Positions 6,276 to 53,139 of a stretch of DNA of 64,000 bases are shown piece after piece. The DNA is from Mercenaria mercenaria (lineage: Eukaryota), in contig NC_069364.1 of the NCBI RefSeq assembly GCF_021730395.1, positions 83,403,972 through 83,467,971 of the forward strand, read 5' to 3'. Position numbers and translations under genes: made by a program. The notes under the pieces were generated by a model. The model saw nothing but the letters and a program-made list of their open reading frames with translations, was not told the origin of the DNA and searched no databases. Each line of letters starts with the position of its first letter. The first letter of the stretch is position 1.

Positions 6276-6396
6276 ACTCTCATATAGCCCCTTAAACTTC
6301 ATTTTGTGGAAGTTTAATAATGACTTTGTTACATGTGTATGAGGTATATCATATTGGCCCAAGAATTCTAGTGCAATATAAACATAAAATAGGTAC

Positions 6397-7733: not shown

Positions 7734-8002
7734 AAATATGAAAACATTTTTGTATTATTTGCTACATTATTTTGTGACCTTCGGCCACACATCACAGAAA
7801 ATTAGAGATATTGGTGGCATCTGATGTAGAACTTCAACAATCCTGTTTCGTATCCAGCAATATCTTTATAATGGTGGAAGGCGAAAATAATATAGATTAA
7901 TCCTTCCAATTAATCTTGTTTATTCTGGCTAAATTCCAATTTAATTGTTTGTTTGTAATTTTGCATCGGTTGTCATAACGCTAAGTCGTTGCTATGGAAT
8001 GT

Positions 8003-12480: not shown

Positions 12481-13100
12481 TTTTAACACTGGGCATTCTA
12501 TTTCATACAAGAAGATTTTTAAAATGTCCACTATATACAAATGTACATATAGGGAAAAGTGACCATGCCCACTGGCAGCCACGATTTTTGAAGAATCATG
12601 GTAGAATGTCACACAAGGGCAATTTGAACATCATACAAGAAGATCTTTAAAGTTTCCACTACATACAACTACCTTAAAGCAGGGCATTAGACAACTGTTG
12701 GGAACAGGTACTCATACTCTCAGAATGGGGAAATTTTCGTCTTTTTAAGACAAAAAGGGGAAGTTTTTAGCCATATATATGTTACTAATTTTCACACTTA
12801 TTAATACTGTTTTCAATCATTTCTAACTAATATAACTATATTGCAGCAGTAACCTTCCTTAGAGGCACTATGATATAACTTCAAAAGAGAGTTCATATCT
12901 GGTTGTGTCAAACAATTTTTTATCAGGGGAATATTCTTCTGAGAAAGGGGAATAAACATATCATTTTATGGGGGGAATTGGACCCATATTCGGCCCCAAA
13001 AATGGCCAAACATTAGTGCCCTGAAAAAAGACCCCTATTGGTTGCCAAAGGTTTGACATAACAAAATAATTTGAATATTCATGGAAGAGTGTTACATAAG
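12480..13100 (+). repeat. Degenerate tandem copies of a roughly 125-155-bp monomer family (ACAAGAAGATTTTTAAA..CCACTATATACA..GGGAAAAGTGACCA.GCCC.CTGGCAGCCA..). The same family is at 27900-29700, 30480-31150, 41750-42000 and 47600-48180.
   Basis: Motif blocks recur. Confidence 0.4.
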
Positions 13101-13557: not shown

Positions 13558-14022
13558 AACAAGAGAGCCAAGATAGCCCATGGGCGCTCACTTGAGTAAC
13601 ATACAATAACAGTGTAAACATGTCTAATCTAGTGAGACAAATTGAGACAAACATTCTAACCAATTTTCATTAAGACTGGACCAAAAACGTGGCCTCTTGA
13701 GTGTAAACAAGCATTTTCTTTGATTTAACCTAGTAACCTAGTTTTTGATCTCAAGTGACCCAGATTCGAAACTCCAAGACTTCATGATAACAAATATTCT
13801 GACCAAGTTTTATAAATATATAGAATCAAACATGTGGCCCCATAGGTAGACCTGAACTTTTATCTCGATGATATCTAGGTCAAGTTCAAAACTGGGTCAC
13901 ATGAGCTCAAAAACTAGGTCACTGTAAATAATAGAAAAAATGACCTCATACTCAGTTCAAAACTGGGTCATGTGGGGACAGGTGAGCGATTCAGGACCAT
14001 GATGGTCCTCTTGTTTAAAGAA
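13558..14022. mobile_element. Two HINE 5' termini placed head-to-head. One is in plus orientation at 13558-13850 (CAAGAGAGCCAAGATAGCCCATGGGCGCTCACTTGAG..). The other is inverted at 13850-14022 (reverse complement of ACAAGAGGACCATCATGGTCCTGAATCGCTCACCTGTCCCCACATGACCCAGTTTTGAACTGAGTATGAGG..).
   Basis: The inverted copy matches the 5' region of the element at 61567 when reverse-complemented. Confidence 0.45.
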
Positions 14023-15506: not shown

Positions 15507-15743
15507 TGAGCCGTGCCATGAGAAAACCAACATAGCGGGTTTGTGACCAGCATGGATCCAGACCAGCCTGCACATCCGCGCAGTCTGGTCAGGATCCATA
15601 CTGTTCGCTTTTAAAGCCTACTGCAATTAGAGAAAATGTTAGCGAACAGCATGGATCCTGACCAGACTGCGCAGATGCGCAGGCTGGTCTGGATCCATGC
15701 TGGTCGCAAAGCCACTATGTTGGTTTTCTCATGGCATGGCTCA
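15507..15743. repeat. Near-perfect 236-bp palindrome with two roughly 102-bp arms and a 34-bp spacer. Each arm also contains a nested sub-palindrome (GGATCCAGACCAGCCTGC..GCAGTCTGGTCAGGATCC).
   Basis: Left arm TGAGCCGTGCCATGAGAAAACCAACATAGCGGGTTTGTGACCAGCATGGATCCAGACCAG... Right arm is its reverse complement with about 7 mismatches. Confidence 0.7.
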
Positions 15744-16795: not shown

Positions 16796-17078
16796 TAAAG
16801 CAATGAGCAGTTTTAAACTAAAAATACTTCTGAGTTTTAAGTGAATACTTCTGAGTGAATTTCCACAGCCTTGCCTTGCAGAACATAACAAGAGCTGTCA
16901 CAGGAGACAGTGTGCTCGACTATTTTGATACTGGACAGTGAAACTTGGCACATCTGAGGAAACTGAAGTTGTCACTGGAGTGTTTAATGGTGGATGAAGA
17001 TATTGTACAACAGCTTGAGTCTATGTCAAAATATTAAGTAATGAGGGAGGTAAAGATTAAGTGTATCAAAACAAGAGG

Positions 17079-18425
17079 GCCATGATGGCCCTATATCGCT
17101 CACCTGTTATCATTGCACTTGAGGACAAGAAGGTCCTCAGAAAAATATCTAAGTCGAAAGGACAGGAACAACAAAGGGAAGAAATTTAACCAAAAAGAAA
17201 AAAAAATCTTACAAGGTACAGATATGTTAAAATACACCTAAAAATTGGAGGTACCATCCATGTTGTACCACAGAAAACTGGTCTCGTGTTTTCCGTACGG
17301 CCAATAATAAAAATGTTACTAAAAATAAGCTATTTATAGTAATGTAAAAGGGAAGTAATTATAACTAGAGCTATCACTAAAGGTGATGAATGTACCCCCC
17401 GCATGCACTGACACAGTACATTGCAATTTGACGCACACAAGATTGCATAATTATGTGGACTGTATGTATATAGAATGTATGTATACAGTATAGTAACAAA
17501 AAACAAAGTCCCATAACTATGCAGAATATTTATCTAAAAGAATGTAACATGCACCATGCACAACTAGGGTTGGTACTGATAACTTGTGTGAAGTTTCATT
17601 AAATTGTGTCAAGGGGATGAGGAGATATGGTGCGCACAAGATTGTGTCTATGTATATAGTATAGTAACAAAAAAAAACAAAGTCCCATAACTCTGCAAAT
17701 TTTTTTTCTGAAAGAACCTAACATGCCCCATGCACAACTACTGTTGTTACTGATCACTTGTGTGAAGTTTCATTAAATTGTGTCAAGGGGATGAGGAAAG
17801 ATGGTGTGCACAAGACTGTGTCTATGTATATAGCATAGTAACAAAAAAACAAAGTCCCATAACTCTGCAATTTTTTTTCTAAAAGAACCTAACATGCCCC
17901 ATGCACAACTACTGTTGGTACTGATCACTTGTGTGAAGTTTCATTAAATTGTGTCAAGGGGATGAGGAGAGATGGTGCGCACAAGATTGTGTCTATGTAT
18001 ATAGTATAGTAACAAAAAAACAAAGTCCCATAACTCTGCAAATTTTTTTTCTAAAAGAACCTAACATGCCCCATGCACAACTAATGTTGGTACTTATCAC
18101 TTGTGTGAAGTTTCATTAAATTGTGTCAAGGGGATGAGGAGAGATGGTGCGCACAAGATTGTGTCTATGTATATAGTATAGTAACAAAAAAACAAAGTCC
18201 CATAACTCTGCAAATTTTTTTCCTAAAAGAACCTAACATGCCCTATGCACAACTACTGTTGGTACTGATCACTTGTGTGAAGTTTCATTAAATTCTGTCA
18301 AGGGGATAAGGAGAGATGGTGCGCACAAGATTGCGTCTACGGACAGACGGACAGACGGACAGACAGACAGACAACCTGAAACCAGTATACCCCCCCTTAC
18401 AACTTTGTTGTCGGGGGGTACAAAA
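17079..18425 (+). mobile_element. HINE-like element. 5' CAAGAGGGCCATGATGGCCCTATATCGCTCACCTG, five copies of a roughly 180-bp monomer (17440-18330), a (GACGGACAGACA)n microsatellite, and a terminal hairpin TACCCCCCCTTACAACTTTGTTGTCGGGGGGTA (18392-18422)
   Basis: Read directly. Monomers ..TAGTAACAAAAAAACAAAGTCCCATAACTCTGCAA..CATGCCCCATGCACAACTA.TGTTGGTACTGATCACTTGTGTGAAGTTTCATTAAATTGTGTCAAGGGGATGAGGAGAGATGGTGCGCACAAGATTGTGTCTATGTATATAG. Confidence 0.5.
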
Positions 18426-20575: not shown

Positions 20576-21246
20576 ACTCAGGTATGAAAAGATTACACGT
20601 GCATGTCTGACTATATAATTTTTTCCCCTTAAAAGCATACTGTTTCTTGTCATCTTATTATTAGGGCAGTATGGTTTACCATACCCGACACATAAGAAAT
20701 GCTAAAAATCGAAAACAGCTACAACTTCCTCATGAATATGTTTCAAAACGTACAAATACGTGTGTCTAATTTTTTGTGGTAATCCCTGATTTTTAGATAA
20801 CATTTGCAATGACAAATCTTACACTACCACTCATGATTCCTTAGCTGAAGTGCTTATTTCAATTCGAAAACATTTTAGGTAAATATACACTCAACTAGAA
20901 CATAAAGTAGGAATTAAACAAGCATTTGAATGAGATCTTGCATGTTCACTAATTACCAACAGTTCACGAATACTCCAACCCATTATACCTTTATAGGGGC
21001 TAGCCTCGAATGAATATCTGCATATCAAATATCATGTTTATTCAACTTTGTATCTTAAGATTAAGAAGATTAGTAGTTATTTTTCTGTAGTATTGCATCC
21101 ATTTTAACTAACTTTTTAAAAACACTTTTTAGAGTTTTTCTGTTAACATATTTTATAGACTTTGCAATGTGTTTGAATGAATAAATGTTGCCTGAATTTT
21201 CCAGAATCACGATAAGTATCTTTCCTTTTTATCAAAAACTGCTTAC

Positions 21247-22047
21247 CTTGTAAAGCCACTTGTGGTTCTTTAATTGCTCTTCCATCTGCTGCTGGCATTT
21301 TAGCTGAGTCTTTCACTGTCATTCCTTCTTTCTCTTCTGCTGTAAGTTCATCTAATTCAGCTTCAAGTTCAGCATGGTCATCCATCTTTGCCATGTCCAT
21401 ACTTATTGCCTCTGAAATGTCTGTGTCTGCATACACATCTTCATATAAACATACATCTTCACAGCCTTGTGCATAAAAGGCTGTGTCTGCACACACATCT
21501 TCTTCTAATAAATCTTCAGGTTCATAGGTTTCTGCATAAAACTCAGTCATACCGTAAGGTTCATCTGCCCTTGCTCCATCTGCACGCATAGCAGAACTAC
21601 TACTTTTCAAATAGCTGGAAATATCTGGAGCACCGAATTCAGCTGCCTTCCTGAATTTAGCTTTTGGCACTGCGCTAAATTTAACCATAGTAGGAGGACT
21701 TCCCTTGTCTCTATCTTCATCTCGTACAGCAGTTTTAGCTTTTGTCACTGGCCCAACAACTCCATTTCTTGTTGTTTCAGTAGACTGACCAGTGCTAGAA
21801 TATCGGTTATACATGTATCTGACACCAGCATCATATTCAAACAGGCTAAATCCCATTTCTTCCTCTGATTCTTCACTCTCACTATCTGCTGCTTTCATAA
21901 CCTTATCAGCTGAAGAAACTTTCTCCAAAGTTTTCATTTTCACATGATCTTCTGACACTTTTCTAGGACTTGAATCATCTGATTTAAGATATTCTACTGC
22001 TGATGATGATTGTAAATAAAATGGAGATAGTGATTCACATTCGGATT
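21247..22047 (-). CDS. Internal coding exon (801 nt, phase 0 to phase 0) of an acidic, low-complexity protein. The product is not recognised.
   Basis: On the minus strand the acceptor TTTCATTTCAG lies at 22048-22058 and the donor CTTTACAAG|GTAAGCAG at 21246. The ORF 21143-22111 is open across the whole interval and is rich in D/E/S, e.g. EESEEEMGFSLFEYDAG, EDLLEEDVCADTAFYAQGCEDVCLYEDVYADTD. Confidence 0.45.
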
Positions 22048-22319
22048 CCTGAAATGAAATAAAGAACAGAGGTTTACAGTCTGAATGCTCCACTCTTATG
22101 TAATTATACAAAGAACAAGCATCACCCCAGCATTAGAAGTCCCCTGCTGAAGAGAGCATGTCACATTTGCTGCCACTGGAACAAATTAATTAATTAATTA
22201 TATATAGATTTTTTTCATATTTAAATTAAAGTTCAGGACATGCATATTCTGAAAATAACCCATACACTATTCGCCAAGTTTCATGAAAACATCTCTTGTA
22301 CTTTTAAAGTAAATGTAAA

Positions 22320-30214: not shown

Positions 30215-31362
30215 GCTCACCTGAGTAATATGAGCTACATGTTTCAAATGTCAAACTGATGCTAAATATAAGAAAGTAGGTCAGTCTGGTCACTGAATTT
30301 CAGTTTTAAGATCGGTGTGCAAAACTGTATATGTCATTCAAATTTCAAGGCTGTATCTCAAAAACAAGAAAGTAGGTCAGTAGGTTAAGGTCACAGTCAA
30401 GTGACCCCTAATTACTTGGGGTCATCAGGTAATTATAATTAAACAGTCTAGGAAATATGATCTCATAACTTTTGAAGTATTTTTTTCCTATATAACTCAT
30501 ATAAAAACTAAGTGACCCTCTGGGGCCTCTTTTCACCCCAGGGGCATAATTTGAACAATCTTGTTAGAGAGCCACTAGGCAATGCTACATACCAAAATAT
30601 CAAAAGCCTAGGCCTTGAACTTTCAGACAAGAAGATTATTAAAAGTTTTTTCCTATATAAGTCTATGTGTGGGGCCTCTTTTCACCCCAGGGGCATAATT
30701 TGAATAATTTTGGCAGAGGACCGCAAGGCGATGCTACATACCAAAGGCCTAGGTCTTATGGTTTCAGACAAGAAGATTTTTTAAGTTTTTTCCTATATAA
30801 GTCTATGTAAAACTTGGGACCCCCGGGGTGGGGCCTCTTTTCACCCCAGGGGCATAATTTGAACAAACTTTATAGAGGACTATTAGATGATGTCACATGC
30901 CAAATATTGAGGCTCTATGCCTTGTGGCTTTGGACAAGAAGATTTTCAAAGTTTTCCCTATATAAGTCTATGTAAACCATGTCATCCCCCAGGGCAGGGC
31001 CATATTTGACCCTAGGGGGATAATTTGAACAATCTTTGTAGAGGACCACTAGATGATGCTACATGCCAAATATAAAAGCCCTATGACCTGTGGTTTTGGA
31101 CAAGAATATTTTTAAAGTTTTTCCTTTCGGTTGCCATGGCAACCAGAGTTCCGCATGGAACTCAATTCTTTGAATAATTTTGAAAGGGGGCCACCCAAGG
31201 ATCATTCCTGTAAAGTTTGGTGTAATTCTGCCCAATAGTTTTCAAGAAGATTTGTTTTTAGAAAATGTTGACGGACGCACGACAGAAAACACACGACAGA
31301 CATTGAACTGTCACAAAAGCTCACCATGAGCCTTTCGCTCAGGTGAGCTAAAAAGTGATTCA
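30215..31362 (+). mobile_element. HINE-like element. A partial 5' motif (..GAGGATCGCTCACCTGAGTAAT) at 30215, arrays of the ATATTTGACCCTAGGGGGATAATTTGAA family, the conserved pre-terminal segment TTTCCTTTCGGTTGCCATGGCAACCAGAGTTC.GC.TGGAA.TCAATTCTTT.AATAATTTTG, and the terminus ..GAACTGTCACAAAAGCTCACCATGAGCCTTTCGCTCAGGTGAGCTAAAAAG
   Basis: Same architecture as the element at 27715-29897. The pre-terminal segment matches 29670-29760. Confidence 0.45.
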
Positions 31363-31984: not shown

Positions 31985-33300
31985 TTAAATCAGCAAGAAG
32001 GCCTTGACGGCCCTAGTTCTTACCCCAGATAACCTAGTATCTAACATTGCCTAGATTTCATAAACACAAACATTTTGACAATGTTCTATATAACTCAGGT
32101 AGATCACTAACCAAATGACATAGTTTTTGATCTCAGGTATCACATTTTCAAAAGTGACCAAGATTTCATACAAACATTCTGACTAAGATTAAAGATGATC
32201 AGATTGAAAAGTGACCTCTGAAGTGTTACTAAAGTTTTTCTATGATTTGACCTAATGACTGTTTTTCCCAAGTGACCCTGTTACAAAATTATCATAAATA
32301 TTACATAGACAAACATTCTAACCAAGTCTCATGAAGATCAGGAAGAAAATGTGGCCTTTTGAGGGCTAACAATGTCTTACTATGATTTACCCAGTGACAT
32401 AGTTTTTCACCCAGATAACCCATAAATGAATTTGATCTAGATTTGATAGAGACAACTATTCTGACAAAGGGTTATAAAAATCAAGCAGAAAATGTGGCCT
32501 CTTGTAACAGTTTGAACATGTTTTTTCTATGATTCAACATCATGACCTAATTTAATACCTCAGGTAACCAAGTTTTGTATCTGTCTTAGATTTTGAAGAC
32601 ACAAACATTCTGACAAAGTTTTATGAATATCAAATGGAAACATGGCCAATCTTTTTCTATGATTTGACCAAGTGACCTCGAAGAAGATTTCAGTTAACCA
32701 AGTTTTAAAAGTGACCTAGATCTTATAGAGACCACCCTTTTTGACAAAGATTAATCATGATCCAGTAGAAAATGTGGCTTCAGGAGTGTTAACAAGGTTT
32801 TTCCATGATTTGGCCTAGTGACCTAGTTTCTCACCCAGATAATCCATAATTGAACTTGACCTAGATTTCATAGAGAGAACTATTCTGACAAAGTTTAATG
32901 AAAATCAAGTAGAAAATGTGGCCTCTAGAGTTAACAAGGTTTTTATATGATTCAACCTAGCGACCTAGATAAAGACCTCAGGTAACCAAGTTTTGAATCT
33001 GGCTCAGATTTTGAGTTTTATGAAGATCATGTAGTACAATCCTTTTCTATAATTTGACCTAGCGACCTAATTGAAGAACTCGGGTAACCAAGTTTTAACT
33101 GTAACCTTGATTTAATGGAGACAAACATTTTTGACAAAGAATTATGATGATCAAGAAGAAAATGTGGCCTCTGGAGTGTTAACAAGGTTTCTCTATGTAT
33201 AGGTTAGTGTTTATTAATGTGTATATACAAAGTTTAATCAGCTATGAGTGGCGCAGCTGCGAGGCTGACTAAGTTTTGTAAATGCACATTAATAAACCCT
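31985..33300 (+). mobile_element. HINE-like element. 5' AGCAAGAAGGCCTTGACGGCCCTAGTTCTTACCCCAG, about eight diverged 150-160-bp monomers, and a 95-bp imperfect palindrome at 33203-33300 (34-bp arms: GTTTATTAATGTGTATATACAAAGTTTAATCAGC and the reverse complement of GTTTATTAATGTGCATTTACAAAACTTAGTCAGC)
   Basis: Read directly. The monomers are much more diverged than in neighbouring arrays. Confidence 0.45.
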
Positions 33301-33410
33301 TAACTATTTAGAGTTTGAAATTATTTTTTGTTTCTGGATGATGTCAGAGCTAATAAAATCAATAACACACCTCTTGTCCCTTCTATACTCATGACTTACC
33401 TGATTAATAA

Positions 33411-35851
33411 GGCCATCCTTAAAAAATTGTTTGTTTGCAGTAACGCGACCCAGAATTTTTAGTGTGAGTAGGTAGGTAGGGATTTTTTTTTTTTTCGTTT
33501 TTTTTTTTTTTTTTTTTTTTTGTATGCTAATTGTACAATACCTGCATTTCCATTTTAACCCTCTGGTTTATACACCTGGGTACTAACACTTCTCTGTAGA
33601 ATGCTAACTTGATTGTAACATATCTGCAAGGGTGGTAGTTTTCACATAGTATGAATACTAATATTACTAGTAATATCACCTTTTTAATAACAATAAAAAC
33701 AACAGATTATAAGCCTGACACCAGTCAGAAACAGAGCTTATTATCTCCATATGAACTTAAAAATTTAAGATTATCAATATATTAAACAAAAATAATTGGC
33801 CAGACCTTTTGAATGTCCTTGCACTGGCTAGGGTAATAAAAAACACATTACATTCCTTAGGATTCAGCATTGAAGTACATAGCAAAATCTTTGATATTTT
33901 AATACCCTGTAGACCCGAATCTGATTACTAGCACCGCACTCCTTCAAAGCCTATGTATCATGTAATTTTAAGACAATACTAAATTGTTTTACATTGTTTT
34001 CTCAGGGCTTAAGCTATGTTAATATTTTAGGGAGAAGTCATTTCTTTCTCAGCTAAGATTAAGGAGAAGTGGAGTGATTTTAGGGAAACGCGGAAAGCTT
34101 TTTAATAGCGCCATGACAGGCAAGTTTAAAATGGAACTAAATATACTTAGCAATGTAAACCTAATTTCTTATCCTTGTGAATCTAATGTGATTAAACTGC
34201 AAATTAAAGTTTTTTTCGCTCTTGCAATGATTGCCTTAACCAAGAAAAGCCTAATCTGAATATGAATACAATTAAAAAAAGCTAGGTTAATTCAAAGAAG
34301 TATAAAATATTTATTTTTATAGCTCTTTGGTTAATTCCATATCAGCAAAAATAAATCAAGCTTCCAGTGCTAATGCACTCAAAGTCAAAACACAAAAACC
34401 CATAAAAGCATTTCACAGTCACTTCTTGAATTAAATACATGTCAATAGCAGTGACATCACTATGACATCACACATAATACACGTCTTCTTTGATCTGCAA
34501 GTGTCTTCTTTGATCTGCTACTGTCGGCACACATAAAAAGAAACAGTTGTCAAACAGATTAAAGCCAGTTTCTGATGGCAGGTGTCAAAAATTTGCATGA
34601 ATTTCAGTTACATTATTTAAGTCACAGAAAGTTTCAGTAATAATAACTATGTTTCTAAAGTCTGTGTTTTGAAAAATAGGAAAAAGTGGACCCATCGAAA
34701 TTTAATTTCACGCAAATAGGAAAATCTGGAAATGTAAACATTATGGATTTCTTTCACTGGTTTTAGTCATTGCATTGAAAGGATGCTTAACTTTATAAAG
34801 AAATTTTCAGGTAAGAAAATTTTGTTTGTCTAATATTTTTGACGTTTATTGTGCTCTTTCCAAGTGACTTGTGTAGTGTCACTGCAGTTTTATCCTCGGG
34901 GCAGATTAAAAAGATTATGCAACGACAAAAGATCGAAACTGAAATTATTATTTGTTTGCAAAATTGTTTGAGAAATTATGACAGAATGATATCCAAGAAT
35001 TTATCTTTCCCAGATGTTTTACGTACGAGAAAAATCATTATTTTACAAATCTAAAACTCGGTTAAATACGTCTCCAGTATTGCACAGATAACACTATGTA
35101 CCACGATTTGTCCATGTGGAATTTTCTAAACAACTTTTTGCATAATTTTGTAGTATATCAGGAAATCGGCAGGGCGTTCGGTAGACCCGAGCTTCTGGGT
35201 TTTCACTCGCACTTATCGAGAAAAACTCGTATTTGACCCGCACAAAAAAAATTCCCGTGCGTCGGCTTGACCCGAGGAAATTTTCTTTTATGCGTATCGA
35301 GTTCGAAAGAACTGCCCCTTGTCAATCAAAATCCCGGTGAATTCGAAAATTGTTCGCCGCCATAAGGGGAAGTATGGCAGTAGGCGGAGCTTGGTATATT
35401 AATCAGCTTCAGGCAGATGTCAATCATGCCACGCACCGACTGACACGTGGGCTTCTCGCGGTTTGTATTTGATACAATAATGTCCGTCATTGCCAAAGGT
35501 ATTTATTGATCAATGTGTTAAAGTTAATTGATAAACAATGCATAGAAGAGCAGCCTAATATCGTATTTGTGTCACTTGTTAATTAGCGGTATACAGAAAG
35601 CGTAACATTCACACATTTTGTTTCTTATCGGTCATACCGATCATTCATGTAGTTGAACCTCAACGAACACTGTCTAGGAAAACTTATACAAATACAAATA
35701 GTTACCCAAAAGAAATAACGAAACAGGAAAGAATAAAAACACGGCACCGAAAAAAAAAAATCCGAATTTTAGGTTAAAAAATTGTTTGAGTCGCGGCGAT
35801 TTTCGTGAGTCGGTCGCGTTACCGCAAACAAACAATTTTTTAAGGATGGCC
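33411..35851. mobile_element. Non-autonomous PIF/Harbinger-like (Tourist-type) DNA transposon of 2,441 bp. The 41-bp terminal inverted repeats are GGCCATCCTTAAAAAATTGTTTGTTTGC(A/G)GTAACGCGACC. The 3-bp target-site duplication is TAA (33408-33410 and 35852-35854). It has no transposase ORF. A CpG-rich segment lies inside at 35160-35460.
   Basis: The left TIR at 33411-33450 and the reverse complement of 35812-35851 match with one mismatch. TAA immediately flanks both ends. A TWA duplication with a GGCC-initiated TIR is characteristic of PIF/Harbinger. Confidence 0.55.
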
Positions 35852-36269
35852 TAAATGACTGCAAGTTAATGCTGATTTACAAAAATAAATTTCCCAACAA
35901 TTTGAAAAGTACTGCAATGCCACTGGACAAAAATAATTTCATACACTAAGAAATGACCCTATGACTTTTAGTTTTTCAACTCCTGTAAACCACTTTTAAA
36001 AAGTATTGTTAATCGGTTTTGATAAATATATCACATGTCCAGAAATGAGACCGTGTTTTGAAGAGTATTGTCCCTTGATTATTAAGCCAGATCGGTTAAA
36101 TTTGGTTGTTTCCCTTTATACCACTTTAACGCGGGTATTGACTTTCGTTAATCTCTCTTATCTTGATAATCTTGACCTTACACTGGTTTTGTTAATTAGG
36201 GGTATTGCGACAACATTGTGAAACTTTTTACACAAGTGGAGTTTATACCTTGCCCGAGGCAATTTGCAG

Positions 36270-37740
36270 TGTATTCCTCAAATTGGTGATTTTGAATGAT
36301 AATCGGGTTTTTGTTTCAAAATTGAGAGCCGGAAAGGATATTCCCATTTTAGATATATATTTAAACTTTTGATTATATCTTTTAAGGGCAAAATATATGT
36401 GAATCATAAATTAAAAGTTAATTAATTAAAAAATAATTTTTGAAATTTAAATATTTTTATTCAAACATGTAATTTAAAATAACAGTTTTAACCTAATTTG
36501 ACAAAGACGGAATTAGGTCGACGTACATGTTTATTACCTGATATACATAACATTCTTATTTCTTCAAATTGGTGATTTTGAATGATAATCTGGAATTTGT
36601 TTAAAAATTGTCAGGAAGCATATAATTCCCATTACTCAATGTATTTTTAAAATATGTATTTAATGACCTCCAGATCTGGCTAAAAATAATCTTTCTCTCA
36701 AATTGAAGTTTGTTAATACTAGAAGATGTACGTGTTTTTGTGTCTAAAATATCTCGTCGAAACCAATAGCACTATAGCGGAATAAGTGATTTATGACTTC
36801 AAAATAAGATTTTTTTTATAATCGAGACAGTTTACCTTGAGTAAAGCGTTACAATCGCTTTTCGATTTTCATCATATAGAAAAACAGCAAATTCTCAAGT
36901 ATTTCCGTAATATATAGTTAAACTTTGTCAGTAATTAAGTTTTAAAGCCTTCTTAAGAAATATAGCATTTATTTCCATATATCTATAAAAGTATTTGTTC
37001 TTGTTGTCGAACGATCTGGAGGATAGTCCCTTTAATTTTTAAAATATTTTTATGAGGGCGAAATATATTATGTATTTCGAGTCTCCTTGAAAATGTGTCT
37101 TTTCAATTTAAAAAAGTTTTTAAATATTATGGATCTGTGGCCTATAAATGCGTTTTACTTTACAATAATGTGAATTTGATTTTGAACGTAAGATAAATTA
37201 TCAAAATTTATAACTCCATATCCATAATTTAGATTTTAACTTTAAAGTGTATTAATGCAAGAGCCGTAATAATTGTCCCTTTAGGCCCGGGGCATGTCAG
37301 ACAAACAGATACTAATCCAATTTGTAACGGTAATAAACAGAAATATGTCAGCATTCGGTTAACTTATTGTCAAACCCGTTATTTGACTTTATCATACATA
37401 TATAATCATTACAAAAAGATAAAATAAGAAATTTTTAACAACAATATTATAATACTTACAAACAAGAAACATGAAATTTACACCCGACCCAATGGACTTG
37501 TTATATTTACATGTACAATATTCAAGTTTAAATATGAACATGTAGTTCTATATGTTAATCAACTTTATGTTATGTTACGTTTTAATGCAATAAATAATTC
37601 TAGTAGTGAAAATGGTATTAAATGAATTAAAAAATGGAATATTTTTATTTAAACATGTAATTTAAAATAACTTTATTTTTATTTAATCTGACAAAGTAAT
37701 GACATTAAAGATGGAATTAGATTGACACACATGTCTATTT
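36270..37740 (+). repeat. AT-rich dispersed or short-range direct repeats. A roughly 270-bp unit occurs at 36270-36540, partially again at 36560-36700, and at 37600-37740. A roughly 130-bp pair lies at 37790-37930 and 38030-38160.
   Basis: Shared blocks TCAAATTGGTGATTTTGAATGATAATC and TTATT.AAACATGTAATTTAAAATAAC...TTTGACAAAG...GGAATTAG.T.GAC..ACATGT.TATT. Confidence 0.35.
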
Positions 37741-39109
37741 AATTCAGTTTATCCGGTGTCATCAGTACACGTGTACTGTGATGGGCAAAATTTTCCAAAT
37801 TAGTAAAATCAGTGATATTCAAACGTTTAGGGAAGCAAGACGACATAAAAATGATTTTAAAATAAACTCATTGAAAGAAAGATTAACTTTTCTAGTTTAC
37901 TTCAATAACTTAATAAATGTTGTGAGATGATTATAAATATAAGAATAAATCATTCTAAAAGACCATGTAAAGCTTAAAATCTGTCATTTCCTACAGAAAT
38001 CAGTGGGACTCTGGATCAAAATTAGTTACTTATTTCAAACGCTTAGGGAAGCAAGAAGATCATATTTTATTTTATTAAAAATTATATTGAAAGAAAGTGC
38101 AAATATTGCAGATTACTTCAATAACTTAATAAATATTGTCAGATGATGCTTTTGATGTCATCTGATGTGTTAAAGATTTTCTCCTTCTATATTTCAATAG
38201 GCGTAAATTGACCGATAATAGCTAATCGATACACTCGATAACCTGTTTTCAAGGGAGACAATTTCGCCAATAAGCCAGCAAATTGGCTTAGATTTCTGGG
38301 TATGAAAGCCGTATGTTATCCACTTTAAATAAAGTCTTTACCTACTTACTTACTTTTAACCTCGACCTAGGTTTACTGAGGCAAACTTTCTGACCTTTAA
38401 GGAGATCAAACAGAAAATGTGGCCTCTACAGTGTGTTAACAAGGTTTTAATGATTTAACCTAGTGTCCTAGTTTTTTTATCTCTGGTAACCTAGGTTTTG
38501 ATGGAAATGTCTCCCATACCACTCCAAATCTTTGGGAGACATAATTATAAATTATAAATGTAACTGATTAGGAATAGGCTCTTAACTGAAAAGATATGCC
38601 AAAACCACCAAACATTTGGGTTATACTTGGAAACAAGTATTGATAAAAAGTTCATAATTCACTCTGCAATAACTATGTAAACTGCCTTTTTCATGAAGAA
38701 AATCAGGTTATTTTCAACATTTTCTATCATTGATCAAAAGTAAACTTCAATGAAGTCTTTGCTTGAAAATTCCTGTTCATATCAAAATGTTTTTAAAGAA
38801 GAGCAATATACCCCTGAAGGGTTATGTGGTGGGCAAGAAAATATTTTTTTTTGGGGGGTGGGAGGGGGGAGTTCCAAGTTTCAAGTCAATACCTTTAATA
38901 TTCTTAAAGTTTTGCTTTGGACACAAAATAAGATGGGCAGATTTGACCTTGACCTTGGTTCATGCACTGCACATTGTCTCATCACCACCTACCTACAACT
39001 AAAGTTTGAAGTCAATCCTTAAATGGTTAATAAGATATGCTCCAGACACTAAACTAGAAAATGCTTTTGTAAAAAAGCGCATATCTCCCCCAATGCAAAG
39101 TCCTATAGG

Positions 39110-40760
39110 CAAGAAGTCAATAGGGGTCAGGAGCAAAAAGTCAAAGAGACACTGATGGTTGGCTGCAATAGGGATCATCTACTTGGCATGTCCAGTCATC
39201 CCGCTAAATTTCAACACTCTTGGCCTAGTGGTTCTCAAGTCACTGTTCAGGCTCCTGTGACCTTGCCCTTTGATCAAGTGACCTCAAAATAAATAGGGGT
39301 CATCTACTCTGCATGTCCAATCATCCTATTAAGTTTCAACATTGTAGGTCAAGTGGTTCTCAAGTTATTTCCAAAAAATGATTTTACATGAACAGGCCAC
39401 TGTGACCTTGACCTTTAATAGACTGACCCCAAAATCAATAGTGGTCATCTACTCTGCATGTTCAATCATCCTATGAAGTTTCAACATTCTGGGTCAAGTG
39501 GTTCTCAAGTTATTGATCGGAACTGGTTATCAATGTTCAGGCCTCTGTGACCTTGACCTTAACGGAGTGACCCCAAAAACAATATGGGTCATTTACTCTG
39601 CATGAACAATCATCCTATGAAGTTTCAACATTCTGGGAAGAGAGATTCTCAAGTTATTGATTGGAAATGGTTTTCCATGTTCAGGCCCCTGTGGCCTTGA
39701 CCTTTAACAGAGTGACCCTAAAATCGTTAGGGGTCATCTACTCTGCATGACCAATCATCCTATGAAGTTTCATCATTCCAGGTCAAGTGGTTCTCAAGTT
39801 ACTGACCGGAAATGGTTTTCAATGTTCAGGCCCGTGACCTTGACCTTTCACAGAGTGACCCCAAAATCGTTAGTGGTCATCTACTCTGCATGACCAATCA
39901 TCCTATTAAGTTTCAACATTCTGGGTCAAGTGGTTCTCAAGTTACTGACCGGAAATGGTTTTCAATGTTCAGGCCCCTGTGACCTTGACCTTTAATGGAG
40001 TGACCCCAAAATCGATAGGGGTCATCTATTTTGCATGTACAATCATCCTATGAAGTTTCAACATTCTGGGTCAAGTGGTTCTCTAGTTATTGATCGGAAA
40101 TGGTTTTCCATGTTCAGGCCCCTGTGACCTTGACCTTTGATGGAGTGACCCCAAAATCAATAGGGGTCATCTACTCTTCATGACCAATCATCCTATGAAG
40201 TTTCAACATTCTGGGTCAAGTGGTTCTCTAGTTATTGATTGGAAATGGTTTTCAATGTTCAGGCCCCTGTGACCTTGACCTTTGACGGAGTGACCCCAAA
40301 ATCAATAGGGGTCATCTGCTCTTCATGACCAATCATCCTATGAAGTTTCAACATTCTGGGTCAAGTGGTTCTCTAGTTATTGATCGGAAATGGTTTTCAA
40401 TGTTCAGGCCCCTGTGACCTTGACCTTTGACGGAGTGACCCCAAAATCAATAGGGGTCATCTACTCTTCATGGCCAATCATCCTATGAAGTTTCAACACT
40501 CTGGGCCAAGTGGTTCTCTAGTTATTGATCGGAAATGGTTTTCAATGTTCAGGCCCCTGTGACCTTGACCTTTGACGGAGTGACCCCAATAACAATAGGG
40601 GTCGTCTACTCCAGCAGCCCTACAACCCTATGAAGTTTGAAGGTTCTAGGTCAAATGGTTCTCCAGTTATTGCTCGGAAATGAAGTGTGACGAACGGACC
40701 GACGGACGGACGGACAGGGCAAAAACAATATGTCTCCTGGAGGAGACATAATAAAACAGG
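39110..40760 (+). mobile_element. Hairpin-terminated array of about eleven copies of a 145-bp CAATAGGGGTCAT family monomer (highly homogeneous at 39800-40600), followed by a (GACGGACGG)n microsatellite (40690-40715) and the terminal hairpin ATATGTCTCCTGGAGGAGACATAAT (40722-40750)
   Basis: CCTGTGACCTTGACC recurs at 40121 and 40266, a period of 145. Copies differ by only a few bases. The microsatellite-plus-hairpin ending matches those at 3826-3887, 18335-18422 and 48320-48405. Confidence 0.6.
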
Positions 40761-44953: not shown

Positions 44954-45340
44954 CTTGGCAAATACAGAAGTTGATATTTCAGAATGTGCCACGACGATAA
45001 AATTATCCTCTTTTCCACTAAACGAAAATGTTTACTCAACCAGAATCCTTAAAAGTACTTGCAATACAGATATGTGTGGTGACCAAAATACTGTGATGAC
45101 CAGAATACTAAGTCAATATCTTTAGGATGAATAAAATTCAAATACATTAAAACATGATCTTTTGTGACATTTCAGTATAAAAAAAAACACATTTAACTAC
45201 GAACATACTTCATGTGGAAATAGAGACAAAACTGTATAATGTAATGCCAATCCAGCTTTGTGTGACCACCAGAATGGTTTGCCTCTGGGATATATTTTAT
45301 AGTTTCATTAAATATTACAGAATGAGCCAAGTCACCATAC

Positions 45341-45486
45341 CTCCCCTCAGTCTTAACACAAGATGCAACATTGACTCATGCTGGATGTTATAGTCCTGCA
45401 GTGATCTACCATCTTCTAACTGCTTTCCAGCAAATATCAATCTCTGTTGATCTGGTGGTATTCCTTCTTTGTCTTGAATCAGTGCC
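45341..45486 (-). CDS. Coding exon encoding the C-terminal two-thirds of a ubiquitin-like domain, [49 protein letters not shown]. It ends in phase 1 after RLRGG.
   Basis: Acceptor CATTTTGCAG| and donor GGGGAG|GTATGG. It is about 90% identical to the invariant ubiquitin segment [48 protein letters not shown], with 4 substitutions, so it is a ubiquitin-like domain rather than canonical ubiquitin. It overlaps the listed ORF 45315-45551. Confidence 0.6.
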
Positions 45487-46406
45487 TGCAAAATGCAATC
45501 ATTGAAGTCACATGGCATTGTGGTCATATGGCAACTTTCCAGCTTAAACATTTGAGGAAAATCCCAGGGGACCCTTTACAGGGCCGCTGGGTAAAACCAA
45601 AAGCCTTTCACAAACAAACAGTATAGTTTCTTCAACAAAAATATCAGTGGTAACCTCAACCATTCAGCCTTATATAATTCATCAAAAACAAACACATAAC
45701 TATAACTATGAACCAATATAAATTCTTTCAACCTAGTACCATTAATGCTCCCAGTGAGTCTATTGTCACCTTTTATTTTTTGTGTTTACCTTAGTAAGAT
45801 GCTATCATAATTATTTTTAAATAAAAAAAACATTTTTCATTTACCTATAAAACCAATGAAATGTTATAGCAAATGTACAAACACAGTCATGATAACAAAT
45901 ATATTTAAGGCCAATCCACCTATTATTAGCTTGCAAACAAAAGCTTTAGCAAAATTTTCTGAGATGAAAAAGGGACATAAATTTGCATGAGTATTGTTAA
46001 CTAGAGCTATGAAACTTGCCATATGAGGTCATATTGAAATGCCGGGAGACATACATGCAAAACTTTCACATAATTTCTATATTAAAAGGGGACATGATTT
46101 TGATAAAATAAAAAGAGTTATGTAGCTTGTCCTATGAGTTTATCTCATAAGGCCAAACACAAATGTTGAAAAAATTTGACCTAGTGGTTTCTGACAAACC
46201 TGTTTACAACCGAGTAAAACTTATTATGCAGACGCCAACACCAACAAAAGGGTGGCAACAAGACTGTAATATTTGAAAAGTTTAGTTGCACTAAAAAATT
46301 GGTAACACTTTAATTTAACATGATAACTAACACTATATATACTATCATAAAATGTGTAGTTAACATTTGGCTATATCAACAGATTTCAAATCAGAAAAAT
46401 CAATAC

Positions 46407-46510
46407 CTTTACATCAGCTATAGTACTGCAGGCATCCAAATCCATACTAACTGTCTTCCCCGTCAATGTTTTGACAAATAAGTGAGAAGTCTTCTGCGTT
46501 TTTGGATTCC
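46407..46510 (-). CDS. Coding exon encoding the N-terminal third of the same ubiquitin-like domain, ..[34 protein letters not shown]. It has no initiator Met, so the domain is internal to a larger protein.
   Basis: Acceptor CTATTTAG| and donor [37 protein letters not shown] aligns to ubiquitin [25 protein letters not shown]. The intron position between VK and A(L/K)IQDKEG is phase 0 on both sides. Confidence 0.5.
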
Positions 46511-48418: not shown

Positions 48419-48680
48419 CAAATAAGATAAATTATTTTCAATTAAAAATAATTTGATTTATTTATTCAAGAAATACTTGTTATGCTCGTTGCCATGGTCA
48501 CACGGTTATCTCTCGGTCTTTTCTTATAACTGGTTCCCGTCTTTCTGACTAATACGAATTACACATAATTACTGGGCCGAGAACAATCTTAATAACGGCT
48601 TATAAAAGCAAAAAACACGTGCAGCCTTTCTCACTTACGTCGTAGTCTACCTGTAAAGAACATCGAACTTACAACTTTTC
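48419..48680 (+). repeat. Ngaro-like element terminal repeat A1 (A2 copy at 54104-54365)
   Basis: 262-bp direct repeat, 259 of 262 identical. Confidence 0.8.
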
Positions 48681-48729
48681 TTCTGCTACGTATATATATA
48701 TATATACTAGTAAATCTACTCGGATTCTA

Positions 48730-49890
48730 ATGCCGCGTGGGCGTGTTAGACAGCGAGGCGGCAGGGCTAGGGCAGGAAGGCCAGCCAGGGCAAACAGAAA
48801 TGCCGACGGCCAGCAGAATGAAGCAGGCGGCCAGCAGAATGAGGCAGAACGAGGCAATAACCATCCAAACACCCGCGGGCAGAAACGAAGAGCCGATGAC
48901 CTTGAGCACGCTGAAAGGACACCGGCACGTGGTCTGGCAGAGCCATCAGATATAGATGACGGAGGCAATATACTGTTACAGGAAAATGCCGGTGGGTCTA
49001 ATTTTATTGATTTTGAACAGGTTTTTCGTAGTTCAGGTCTTATGTCTTGTAACGGTAATGAGACTAGTTCAAGGTCAAATAGTACTTCTAATATAGGATT
49101 TGACAATGGACACGACAAAAATGTACCTCTGCCACCCCGTCAGATCAATGAAACGTGTCAGAATGCCTCCTTTAATCATAACTTTCCATCCGTTCGTTTA
49201 TCAAATGATGATTTGACTGCACATGTACCATCATCGTTAAAACAACAAATCTGTCGTGGAGAATACGTTAATCTGGCCTTACTCTTAAAAGGGGCTATCG
49301 AACTGTCTGAATTTTGTAAGGGTAGTGTTTTCAAACTCTCGGCGGATGGCCACATTGAGTCATCTCATAAAGAGTGCAAAGATAAAATTACATCTAGAGA
49401 AAAATGGACCAATGCATTTATAATTTATGCTTCCATTTACCTTCCGACACATAGTGATAAAGTTCACGAGTTACTTCACTATATGTTTAACATATGGGAC
49501 TGTGCAATGCGCCAAGGGGGCAACGGGTGGAGAATTTATGATGAACAATTTCCCCTTTGCCAGGCTATATGTCCGTCCCCATGGTCACAAACAAATAACG
49601 AACTTTGGTGGCGATGTATACAGGTCAAAGATAATCAGTCTGCAAATCAGTCAGTTATAAATCCTCTCAGGTACACGTGCCATGATTTTAACAGAGGTAG
49701 TTGTTTCTGGTCAAACTGTAAATATCCTCATATATGCGCAAAATGTTTTGCACCACATCCTGAGGTCACCTGTTCCCAGTCCGGTTCTTCAGGTCAAGGT
49801 CAAATGACAAGCCCTCAGTTTAATTTTCGTGGCAGGGGCTTTCGCCGACCGTTCAGAGGACCTAAACGAGGTCAACCAAGAAAACAGTAA
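48730..49890 (+). CDS. ORF1, a putative Gag-like protein of 386 aa with a basic N-terminus and a Cys/His cluster (CHDFNRGSCFWSNCKYPHICAKCFAPH)
   Basis: It is the first ORF of the element and overlaps ORF2 in a different frame, as is typical of DIRS-order elements. It was not recognised by specific motif beyond the zinc-knuckle-like Cys/His spacing. Confidence 0.5.
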   Translation: MPRGRVRQRGGRARAGRPARANRNADGQQNEAGGQQNEAERGNNHPNTRGQKRRADDLEHAERTPARGLAEPSDIDDGGNILLQENAGGSNFIDFEQVFRSSGLMSCNGNETSSRSNSTSNIGFDNGHDKNVPLPPRQINETCQNASFNHNFPSVRLSNDDLTAHVPSSLKQQICRGEYVNLALLLKGAIELSEFCKGSVFKLSADGHIESSHKECKDKITSREKWTNAFIIYASIYLPTHSDKVHELLHYMFNIWDCAMRQGGNGWRIYDEQFPLCQAICPSPWSQTNNELWWRCIQVKDNQSANQSVINPLRYTCHDFNRGSCFWSNCKYPHICAKCFAPHPEVTCSQSGSSGQGQMTSPQFNFRGRGFRRPFRGPKRGQPRKQ

Positions 49891-51586
49891 AACTGTAAGC
49901 TTTAACTCAACAAACAGCCCATCAGTTCAACAGCTCACCAATTTTGATATTTCTAATTTGGCAAAATCACCAGTAAAAGTGGAAGCCTTGAAACAATATG
50001 CACTCTTGTACGAAACCAGTGAATCTAAGTTTTTACTAGACGGTTTTACGAAAGGATTTTCCATTCAGTACACAGGTCCTCGCTTACCACGAGATTCAAA
50101 TAATTTGCGTTCTGTTACACTCAGTCCGGAAATAATAAAATCTCAAATTAATAAAGAGTTAGAAGCAGGAAGAATAGCTGGTCCATTTGTTCATCGCCCA
50201 TTTCCTAATTTAATAGTTTCACCGATAGGCTTAGTTCCTAAAAAAACACCGGGAGAATTCCGAATGATTCATCATTTGTCACATCCCCCTGGCGGTTCAA
50301 TTAATGACTTTATTGACCCAGATTTATGCTCTGTCCAATACACTAGCTTCGACAAGGCAGTTAAGTTAGTTCAAGATCTAGGACGAAATTGTAAACTTTT
50401 CAAGTCGGACATTAAAAGTGCATATCGTTTAATACCGATTCACCCCGATGATTTTGAATTACTGGGATTTTGCTATGATGGTCATTTTTATTTTGACAAA
50501 GCGCTCCCGTTTGGGGTATCAATAAGCTGCATAACTTTTGAAAGGTTTGCTAGGTTTCTTGAATTTTGTGTTAAATTAAAACTACAGTCAGATAGCTTGA
50601 TACACTATTTAGATGACTTTCTAGGGGGAGACAAATCTGTTGAATCATGTACTCGTGCTTTAGAAATTTTTAAAAGTACAATGTCTGAACTTGGTGTGCC
50701 TTTAGCGCTCGACAAAACTGAAGGCCCTACAGAGGTTTTGATCTTTTTAGGCCTAGAACTAGATTCAAACCATATGACGGTAAAAATTCCTATAGCAAAA
50801 ATGCAGGAGGTTATACAAAAAATCGAAGAAATTCTTTCACGAAATAAAACAACATTAAAGAAAATGCAGTCTCTCATTGGGTCATTAAACTTTTGTTGCA
50901 GAGCCATAGTAGTGGGTAGGCCTTTTATACGCCGACTAATAAACTCAGTTTGTGGTCTCACGAAGCCTTTTCATCGCATTCGAATTAAAAAAGAGATACG
51001 GCTTGATTTGGCAATGTGGTTAGTTTTTCTAAAAAAATTTAACGGTATCTCTGTTTTTCATGACCGTTATTGGATCACGAACACCGATACAGAGTTATAC
51101 ACTGATAGTGCGGGTGGCAAGGGATTAGGCTTTGGTATATACTTCAAAGGCCATTGGTGTTCGGCGAAGTGGCCGGACACGTGGCACACGTGCGGCATCA
51201 CGTCAGATATAACAGTACTGGAATTGTTCCCGATTTTGGTAGCTATATTCATTTGGGGAAAGGATCTGATGAATAAAAAAATAAGATTTAACAGCGATAA
51301 TATGGCTGTGGTTCACATTCTTAACAAATTATCCTCTAAATCAGAACGAGTTATGTGCATTGTCAGGATATTAACGTTGAGATGTTTTAACTTGAATATT
51401 TTAATCAAAGCCTCTCATGTCCCGGGTTGTAGCAATGAAATCTGCAACGCTTTATCTCGCTTTCAGTTGAACAAGTTCAGAGAATTAGCTCCAGACGCAG
51501 ACGTCAGCCCCCATTCAATACCAACTTTTCTATGGGACATCTTCGATCTAGAGCTAGACAACTGCTTCTGTCAGGGATTTCAATGA
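49829..51586 (+). CDS. ORF2, reverse transcriptase plus RNase H, 585 aa
   Basis: RT motifs IVSPIGLVPKK, FRMIHHLSHP, FKSDIKSAYRLIPIHPDDFELLGF, ALPFG and HYLDDFLGG are present. The RNase H region has YTDSAGGKGLGFG..ELFPILVA..NSDNMAVVHIL..ASHVPGCSNEICNALSR. Confidence 0.85.
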   Translation: MAGAFADRSEDLNEVNQENSKTVSFNSTNSPSVQQLTNFDISNLAKSPVKVEALKQYALLYETSESKFLLDGFTKGFSIQYTGPRLPRDSNNLRSVTLSPEIIKSQINKELEAGRIAGPFVHRPFPNLIVSPIGLVPKKTPGEFRMIHHLSHPPGGSINDFIDPDLCSVQYTSFDKAVKLVQDLGRNCKLFKSDIKSAYRLIPIHPDDFELLGFCYDGHFYFDKALPFGVSISCITFERFARFLEFCVKLKLQSDSLIHYLDDFLGGDKSVESCTRALEIFKSTMSELGVPLALDKTEGPTEVLIFLGLELDSNHMTVKIPIAKMQEVIQKIEEILSRNKTTLKKMQSLIGSLNFCCRAIVVGRPFIRRLINSVCGLTKPFHRIRIKKEIRLDLAMWLVFLKKFNGISVFHDRYWITNTDTELYTDSAGGKGLGFGIYFKGHWCSAKWPDTWHTCGITSDITVLELFPILVAIFIWGKDLMNKKIRFNSDNMAVVHILNKLSSKSERVMCIVRILTLRCFNLNILIKASHVPGCSNEICNALSRFQLNKFRELAPDADVSPHSIPTFLWDIFDLELDNCFCQGFQ

Positions 51587-52423
51587 ATTCAAGGCTAACA
51601 TATAATACTGCCTTTCGGGCATTTGAAAATTTTAGGCGGTTATACAATCTTTCAGACAGTTGGCCTATACCAGAACAACAAATCACTTTATTTATGGCTT
51701 ATTGTTTCGAAAAAGGGTTGTCACCCAAGACAATCACGAGGTATATAGCTGGGCTAAATTATTTTCACAAACTTTCTGGATATTATGATATAACCCAGGT
51801 TTTCATTGTTAATAAATTACTAGAGGGTTGCCATAGGAACCGTATCACACATGATAACAGAGCCCCACTAACTCTGCCTATTTTGACATCTATTTGCAGA
51901 GTTCTAAGAGAAATATGCTTCAATGCGTATGAAACAAAACTGTTTACTTCGCTCTTTACTTTAGCATACTTTGGATTGTTCAGGGTTAGCGAATTAGTTG
52001 TCTCCTTTAGGGGACAATTTGATGGGCCCATTAAACGATCAGATTTGTTCGTGATTGATAACCAATATCTTACAATTCAACTTCGGCATAGTAAAACAAA
52101 CCAAAGGGGAAAACCGACTAAAACTACCCAGAGAATCTGGGCCTGTCTGTGCAGTGCAAGCATTAACAGATTTCTTGGCCGTAAGACCAAAAAATGAAGG
52201 AATATTATTTTGTCATCAAGAAGGCACCCCAGTTACCAGAACTCAATTTTCAGCCATTCTGTATAAATGTCTGAGTAAAAATCAAATTACTGGTACATTT
52301 AAATCGCATAGCTTTAGAATTGGTCGGGCTACAGACCTGGCAACTAGGGGTTATTCAGCGAGTGTAATTATGAAACTTGGTAGATGGAAATCTAATTGCT
52401 ATAAAGTATACATCCGAACGTAA
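51532..52423 (+). CDS. ORF3, tyrosine recombinase, split over two frames (51532-52197 and 52055-52423) by an apparent one-nucleotide frameshift near 52105-52120
   Basis: YR hallmarks are LFTLAYFGLFRVSELV, IQLRHSKTNQRG, then after the frame change ..SGPVCAVQALTDFL..HSFRIGRATDLA..GRWKSNCYKVYIR, which gives the R..H..R..Y catalytic signature. The join falls in the GGGGAAAACC run. Confidence 0.75.
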
Positions 52424-52584
52424 TTCTACAGTAAAGAGATGTTTTCCCACTCTTAACTGTATCAGCGGACAACATTTTTTAAAAGTGCATTGAAGTCAGT
52501 TCTTCCTGGTAGTTATTCCGTTTAAAGCGAATTTTCCACATTTAAGGTATTCTTGTCAATTCCATCTAATAACTATTTGTAGAT

Positions 52585-53139
52585 GTGTGGGTCCTGGGAG
52601 ATTCAATACCGTTCTGGGCTGGTAAACGAGCAGCAGACACCGGTAAACCCAACCTTTCGTTACCCGATATAACTATAGCTTGGTGGGGAATAAGCGGACT
52701 TCGATGGACATCATTTCGCCATTCAGTACAGACTCAAGTATTACTGTCATCGCCACCAAGGGCTATCATCTTACATTTAGGTGGTAACGATTTGACAAGT
52801 TTATCTTCTATCGAGCTAAGGGAGTTAATAGAGACAGAAGTGAAATATCTACGCGATGCCTTCCCCGAGACAATTATCATTTGGGTAGATATTTTACCAA
52901 GGAGGGTCTGGAGGGGGGCCTGTAATCTCAAAGCTATTGACGTCAAACGCAAACGAATAAATAGATCGGGCCGGATTATTACAAGTCGGTCTGGCAGGAG
53001 TGATATAGTGAGCCCAGATATTGATACGGCTACTAATTTTTTCAGATCTGACGGGGTCCATTTAAATGAGGTGGGGTTGGAGTTTTATCTGTACTATTTG
53101 AAATCTGCCATAATAAAAAATCTCTGTGCGTCTCAATAA
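52585..53139 (+). CDS. ORF4, an SGNH/GDSL-family hydrolase-like protein of 184 aa
   Basis: Block I VLGDSI (GDS), block III LHLGGNDL (GGND) and block V DGVHLN (DxxH) occur in the correct order and spacing. Its position after the YR ORF matches the hydrolase-like ORF reported in some Ngaro elements. Confidence 0.65.
   Translation: MWVLGDSIPFWAGKRAADTGKPNLSLPDITIAWWGISGLRWTSFRHSVQTQVLLSSPPRAIILHLGGNDLTSLSSIELRELIETEVKYLRDAFPETIIIWVDILPRRVWRGACNLKAIDVKRKRINRSGRIITSRSGRSDIVSPDIDTATNFFRSDGVHLNEVGLEFYLYYLKSAIIKNLCASQ

Follow-up and report, generated by a model that had tools for sequence, protein, structure and literature searches.

Elements of the PIF/Harbinger superfamily carry 3-bp TWA target-site duplications (TSDs), terminal inverted repeats (TIRs) that are shorter than 60 bp in 93% of the families and usually start with A or G, and two open reading frames (ORFs) for a DDE transposase and a Myb/SANT protein (PMC4482050). 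The TWA duplication has also served as a PIF/Harbinger criterion elsewhere (PMC2213677), the TIRs measure 25 to 50 bp in animals (PMC9179366), and PHIS elements prefer AT-rich targets (PMC4122938). In rice, the mPing/Pong ends begin with GGCC (GGCCAGTCAC) and are accompanied by TAA or TTA duplications (PMC2836001). Zator elements also generate 3-bp duplications (PMC10045372); Zator-1 of amphioxus (Branchiostoma) has 33-bp TIRs with TAA or TTA duplications and can flank and move non-transposon DNA (PMC12905397). Here, we describe an element at positions 33411 to 35851 of a 64-kb window, i.e., the whole stretch of DNA analyzed (Mercenaria mercenaria contig NC_069364.1; all coordinates are window positions). 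On the basis of its ends, its flanks, and its interior, the element is probably a single insertion of a non-autonomous class II DNA transposon (cut-and-paste, TIR type) that belongs to the PIF/Harbinger superfamily.

The element spans 2441 bp and ends in TIRs of 40 nt, in which 39 of the 40 positions are complementary and similarity stops exactly past nucleotide 40 when both ends are aligned (Table 1). A repeat finder returned this pair as the sole long high-identity inverted pair in the region, at a length of 41 nt (98%), one pair of which comes from the two TAA copies (last A on the left, first T on the right). The inverted repeat of the preliminary description (41 bp, 40 of 41 matching) is thus retained, with its length corrected to 40 nt and the extra pair assigned to TAA. 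The sole mismatch places A at 33439 opposite 35823 (G on the arm strand), so that the right arm reads CpG where the left arm reads CpA. Each of three TIR subsequences (outer 28-mer, outer 19-mer, and inner 20-mer) was present exactly twice in the window with up to 3 mismatches allowed (shuffle expectation, 0.00 to 0.05), and none of the 100 shuffles reached two occurrences. The perfect TAA duplication proposed earlier is present at both ends. Two random 3-mers of the window are identical with a probability of ~0.02 to 0.025, and identical and of the TWA form with a probability of ~0.001 to 0.003. The flanks do not fit a TSD of 2 (TA), 4, 5, or 8 bp, or TTAA, which leaves TAA as the only fit. 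The intact 3-bp duplication and the near-identical TIRs indicate a fairly recent insertion.

The interior has no coding capacity. No stop-to-stop frame exceeds 79 codons, Pfam had no match at E<=1 in any of the six frames, and nothing scored when 37 stop-to-stop ORF pieces, concatenated to 1662 aa, were compared with 5.8 billion proteins; the earlier claim that there is no transposase ORF inside agrees with the frame lengths and the Pfam scan. Neither ARAGORN nor Rfam, run with gathering cutoffs as well as with a permissive one (E<=1), found an RNA gene in the element, and apart from the poly-T run no segment of the interior recurred elsewhere in the window. With TIRs far beyond chance and no coding capacity, the 2.4-kb non-autonomous transposon first described is borne out, and the assignment to non-autonomous TIR DNA transposons is very probable.

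Table 1. Coordinates of the transposon, its target-site duplication, and its internal features
Feature	Position	Strand	Description
Left TSD copy TAA	33408-33410	.	Base before (33407) is A; upstream flank CTGATTAA
Left TIR	33411-33450	+	40 nt, GGCCATCCTTAAAAAATTGTTTGTTTGCAGTAACGCGACC; 2 CpG; position 29 is CpA
CpG-poor, AT-rich interior	33451-35020	.	No ORF, no domain; CpG observed-to-expected ratio (o/e) 0.33-0.43
Subterminal GGA-T13-CG followed by poly-T (39 T-rich nt)	33480-33521	+	Mirrored near right end; TRF 33483-33521
Internal TIR-core-like stretch	34939-34972	+	...TTATTTGTTTGCAAAATTGTTTGAG; one AAAATTGTTTG(AG); at CpG-poor/CpG-rich boundary
CpG-rich block	35021-35811	.	CpG o/e ~1.4-1.5, GC 39%, non-coding; unbroken into right TIR
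Internal copy of TIR core TTAAAAAATTGTTTG	35774-35788	+	Perfect 15 nt, inverted relative to right TIR, 40 nt apart
Right TIR	35812-35851	-	40 nt, GGTCGCGTTACCGCAAACAAACAATTTTTTAAGGATGGCC then TAA-ATGAC; 3 CpG
Right TSD copy TAA	35852-35854	.	Base after (35855) is A

Motifs of the termini recur inside the element. The TIR core AAAATTGTTTG was found four times in the element and five times in the whole window (0.33 expected); the two internal sites (34960 and 35778) both take the form AAAATTGTTTGAG, and the fifth site of the window (12909 to 12919) lies outside any TIR context. The 15-nt internal copy near the right end could form a hairpin with the right TIR. An inverted subterminal pair (33480 to 33493 and 35750 to 35763; 14 nt, 100%) gives both ends a common GGA-T(11-13)-CG, the T tract of the left one being expanded to a 39-nt T run, and a tandem repeat (20 bp, 2.2 copies; 34483 to 34525) lies inside the CpG-poor interior. 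Recurring terminal motifs are expected of binding sites for a transposase or an accessory protein, which is their putative role here.

These features suggest how the element may have moved. A transposase supplied in trans by an autonomous relative elsewhere in the genome would recognize the 40-bp TIRs, and the AAAATTGTTTG core, which recurs twice inside the element, would probably be a further recognition site. In the PIF/Harbinger case, a Myb/SANT-like DNA-binding protein would bind the ends and recruit the DDE transposase (PMC2836001 and PMC9179366). The enzyme would then excise the element and insert it at an AT-rich TAA target by a 3-nt staggered cut, the repair of which would leave the TAA duplication.

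Among the superfamilies, PIF/Harbinger is the most probable. The TAA duplication follows the TWA rule, the insertion target is AT-rich, and the 40-nt TIR with its GGCC start falls within the expected length and has one of the expected first bases (i.e., A or G). The element resembles non-autonomous PIF/Harbinger elements such as rice mPing and zebrafish Harbinger3N_DR in its TWA duplication, AT-rich target, TIR of <60 bp, G start, and non-coding interior, as well as in its presumed need for proteins in trans. It differs in that it is 2.4 kb long and is not a miniature inverted-repeat transposable element (MITE), that it lacks the plant G(N)5GTT motif, and that its TIR similarity to mPing/Pong stops at GGCC. 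Tourist-like MITEs are defined as short, high-copy non-autonomous elements (PMC2836001), and the label "Tourist" given to the element at first is withdrawn (2441 bp versus about 100 to 500 bp). The GGCC start had likewise been called a hallmark; it is documented for mPing/Pong, while the broad survey gives only A or G as the first base. Curated bivalve libraries contain 58 PIF-Harbinger, 100 Academ, and 3 Zator families (PMC10294476), and Harbinger is favored mainly because it is commoner in bivalves.

Several observations weigh against an inserted PIF/Harbinger copy. The TIR starts with GGCCATCCTT and thus lacks the G(N)5GTT motif of plant PIF elements; this motif, applied to Medicago elements (PMC2213677), does not define animal families. 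A 23-mer of the TIR had no matches in metagenome, viral, and prokaryote genome contigs, and the matches of the inner TIR 20-mer (one in a metagenome and one in Aequorivita) were rejected as chance because they fall within bacterial coding sequence and lack the outer TIR. The window contains no autonomous partner with the same TIRs, the TIR occurring only twice in it, and no paralogous empty site, as no sequence matched the reconstructed empty site across its junction. Other searches were likewise negative: the element had no match in plasmid and phage collections in the distant mode, Pfam scans of 28 further ORFs of the window revealed no DDE transposase, and a literature search with the TIR string returned only unrelated primers.

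A further point of this kind is that the structure of the element does not separate Harbinger from Zator, since Zator-1 shares the TAA/TTA duplication and a TIR of ~33 bp. Thus, the pairing of a TWA duplication with a GGCC-initiated TIR, introduced as a PIF/Harbinger hallmark, still leads to that superfamily as the most likely one and is not exclusive to it. If the element were a non-autonomous Zator member, the same cut-and-paste logic would apply with a Zator transposase (IS630/Tc1-related, ISAzo13/TP36-like), which belongs to a different transposase family from that of Harbinger. In the described features, i.e., the TIR and the 3-bp TAA/TTA duplication, the element is indistinguishable from Zator-1, and among molluscs Zator has been reported only in bivalves (PMC10294476). 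Zator is rare there, with 44 ORF-based elements and 3 curated families against the 58 of PIF-Harbinger (PMC10294476), and we regard a Zator origin as quite unlikely.

A non-autonomous AcademX element is extremely unlikely: animal AcademX elements do have 3-bp TSDs, as found here (PMC7165386), and Academ ranks third in number of families among the curated DDE superfamilies of bivalves (100 families; PMC10294476), but AcademX ends are almost always 5'-pyrimidine...purine-3' (PMC7165386), while those of the element are 5'-G...C-3'. The probability that remains after Harbinger, Zator, and AcademX falls to other superfamilies or to an unclassifiable element. EnSpm elements need CACTA-type termini, and CMC/EnSpm (CACTA) was rejected because the termini of the element are GGCC...GGCC, not CACTA/CACTG. 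The TSD range of CMC/EnSpm is 2 to 4 bp (PMC7165386). The other PHIS groups are related DDE transposons with short AT-rich targets that differ in sequence (PMC4482050): NuwaII uses C|TNA|G, and the bases around TAA are A (33407) and A (35855); TAA with A flanks fits none of the targets of Pangu (ANT), NuwaI (CWG), and ISL2EU (AT); and the flanks do not fit Spy (no duplication, AAA|TTT pattern).

The second feature of the element is a sharp step in its CpG content. The window has a GC content of 37% and a CpG o/e of 0.46, with a background of 0.35 outside a few patches (often 0.1 to 0.3 per kb); the CpG depletion noted earlier therefore holds overall, although other CpG-normal patches exist (e.g., 48 to 56 kb). 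The maximum-likelihood change point within the element is 35021, with 17 CpGs on its left side (1610 bp) and 49 CpGs on its right side (830 bp; CpG o/e of 0.43 for 33411 to 35000 and of 1.50 for 35001 to 35851). The left interior (o/e, 0.33) is on par with the host background, and the right block departs from the background rate with P = 2e-15. The richness extends into the TIR (o/e of 2.3 for the last 150 bp of the element). The CpG-rich block stops exactly at the TIR, and the first 160 bp of the right flank contain no CpG, which points to a step intrinsic to the element. The left flank has an o/e of 0.19 to 0.25, and the flank from 35855 to 38000 has one of 0.97. The 300-bp CpG-dense segment that had been delimited at 35160 to 35460 is indeed CpG-rich, but its bounds enclose only the middle of a block that reaches from ~35021 to the right TIR. 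CpG-containing subterminal repeats (e.g., GACCCG) showed no enrichment over first-order Markov simulated sequences, and nothing else in the window matched the CpG-rich segment.

The distribution of CpG favors an element that was already a chimera at insertion. The CpG-rich right third (~35021 to 35851) may be read as native transposon sequence rather than a captured CpG island, because its CpG richness carries on into the right TIR. The CpG-poor left 1.6 kb, as depleted in CpG as the host background, would have been acquired before this insertion, either as filler or as DNA captured from the host. The step would also predate insertion, because the TIRs are near-identical and have no non-CpG mismatches.

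Alternatively, the element may have been uniformly CpG-rich at insertion, its left two-thirds then losing CpGs in place at a methylation boundary. Each half of the element matches the CpG content of its own flank, with the CpG-poor half next to the depleted left flank and the CpG-rich half next to the CpG-normal region at 36 to 38 kb; the same arrangement would result from a methylation boundary that acted after insertion. Moreover, the sole TIR mismatch is a CpG-to-CpA change on the left arm. These observations speak for decay in place. Gene bodies are present nearby (minus-strand host exons, including the ubiquitin-like exon at 45339 to 45490), and the boundary would separate a methylated gene body on the left from an unmethylated intergenic or promoter region at ~35 to 38 kb on the right. 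We modeled decay in place (o/e falling from 0.8 to 1.4 down to 0.33, with CpGs mutating 10 to 30 times faster than other sites). It predicted 2 to 10 non-CpG TIR mismatches (3 to 10 for a CpG loss of 60 to 75%), and none was seen; the probability of finding none lay between 5e-5 and 0.13 across the CpG rate ratios (10 to 30) and starting o/e values that were assumed. In addition, the left arm keeps two of its three CpGs, and the CpG-free first 160 bp of the right flank separate the CpG-rich block of the element from the patch at 36 to 38 kb. Decay in place is thus unlikely for any CpG mutation rate below ~30 times that of other sites.

The preliminary description had offered a captured promoter or CpG island as one option for the CpG-dense segment; in its full form, this option has the transposon ends carry a promoter or CpG island taken from the host, perhaps together with a first exon. 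In its favor are promoter-like motifs in the CpG block, all of them resemblances judged by eye only: GCCGCCAT at 35356, which we take to be YY1-like, a presumably TATA-like TATATTAA at 35395, CACGTG at 35445, and TCTCGCGG at 35454. A short ATG...AAAG|GT reading, ATGTCCGTCATTGCCAAAG|GTATTT at 35480 to 35505, was also picked out by eye and would presumably represent the exon. Against it, the CpG richness runs through the last 150 bp of the element into the TIR, as is the case for native terminal sequence, and the segment has no protein, Pfam, or Rfam signal and no match elsewhere in the window. CpG-containing k-mers are repeated no more than by chance, and the putative exon is directed outward, only 350 bp from the element end. 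Since the block comprises the whole right third into the TIR, a native transposon end is more likely, and a captured host promoter or island is very unlikely.

It is also highly unlikely that the right third is a mobile, methylation-resistant, promoter-like module, consisting either of a captured host promoter with its first exon or of the transposon's own promoter. If it were, the module would now lie at the margin of a CpG-normal region that is flanked by methylated gene bodies; it could act there as a transcription start or as a methylation boundary in the host, and the element would carry CpG-island-like regulatory DNA to new sites across a mollusc genome.

The element is a genuine but ordinary non-autonomous DNA transposon, one more in a bivalve-like genome rich in transposable elements (TEs), and its chief use lies in repeat annotation. 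For annotation practice, it illustrates that a TWA duplication and a 30- to 40-bp TIR alone cannot place an animal element in PIF/Harbinger, because Zator looks alike. In combination with methylome data and further family copies, the sharp CpG step in a young-looking element could also serve as a convenient natural probe of whether CpG content in this genome tracks the origin of a sequence or local methylation domains.

The sequence to the right of the element (36015 to 38000) is AT-rich (GC, 26 to 28%), has a CpG o/e of ~1.0, and lies between two strongly CpG-depleted domains. It carries internal direct repeats (36274/36560, 36443/37631, and 37870/38086) and could be either DNA inserted recently or an intergenic or promoter region that is free of methylation. 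A second CpG-normal domain (48 to 56 kb) contains a tyrosine-recombinase retroelement (Ngaro/DIRS-like) on the plus strand at 48646 to 53139. Its ORFs encode a gag-like protein, a reverse transcriptase (RT; PF00078), a tyrosine recombinase split by a frameshift (PF02899 and PF00589), and a GDSL/SGNH hydrolase. The best protein matches of the RT have 70 to 73% identity, and all named RT matches are from bivalves (Ruditapes philippinarum and Dreissena polymorpha) or from "metagenome-assembled genomes" (MAGs) of clam symbionts, which evidently represent host contamination; the RT thus points to a bivalve as the probable host. The CpG o/e of the retroelement (0.7 to 1.1 versus a background of ~0.35) suggests a recent arrival. 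Because this young-looking retroelement is CpG-normal, CpG-normal sequence in the window can mark recently arrived DNA.

A repeat family with a period of ~145 bp forms at least 10 short arrays across the window, with 65 to 77% identity between copies. These arrays lie at 1 to 800 bp and at 1.1 to 2.7, 10.5 to 11.4, 13.7 to 15.1, 16.1 to 16.7, 23.3 to 26.2, 32.0 to 33.2, 38.35 to 38.5, 42.6 to 43.2, and 61.6 to 63.4 kb. One of them ends ~200 bp to the left of the transposon, whose outer left flank belongs to this family. We take the family to resemble the satellite-carrying mobile elements of bivalves, and the abundance of arrays with this period likewise agrees with a bivalve host. Two tandem arrays were also found, at 39240 to 39995 (period of 145/289 bp, 5.2 copies, 85%) and at 30767 to 31125 (period of 166 bp, 2.2 copies, 82%).

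Three other inverted structures were observed in the window. A near-palindrome of 109 bp at 33199 to 33307 (arms of 44 nt with 82% complementarity around a 21-nt loop) lies 100 bp from the left end of the transposon; it has no clear flanking duplication and may be a small foldback or MITE-like element. A foldback at 15507 to 15743 (103-nt arms, 93% complementarity, 31-nt spacer) lies in a CpG-normal kilobase. A possible second TIR element is marked by an inverted pair at 13978 to 14016 and 17069 to 17107 (39 nt, 87%), which begins with ACAGGTGAGCGAT and has 3.1 kb between its arms; its flanks (GGGG and TATC) show no obvious duplication.

On the minus strand, a ubiquitin-like domain (HLFVKTLTGKTVSMDLDACSTIADVK) extends over two exons (46407 to 46484 and 45339 to 45490) and ends in ...RLRGG|gt; the ubiquitin-like assignment is a lead only. 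With the splice donor directly past GG, a fusion partner should lie further left, and no L40 or S27a extension of these exons was found in the window. Two long minus-strand ORFs (6352 to 7801 and 21146 to 22132), one proline-rich (PPPPPP runs) and one acidic (322 to 329 aa), lack Pfam domains, and the acidic one had no homolog among the 5.8 billion proteins; they may be either host exons or degenerate TE ORFs. Finally, overlapping ORFs of 99 to 139 aa on both strands at 9512 to 9973 arise from a short coding-like tandem repeat (VPYTNQVLPCTIY...), and the kilobase that holds this cluster has a relatively high CpG content (o/e, 0.72).

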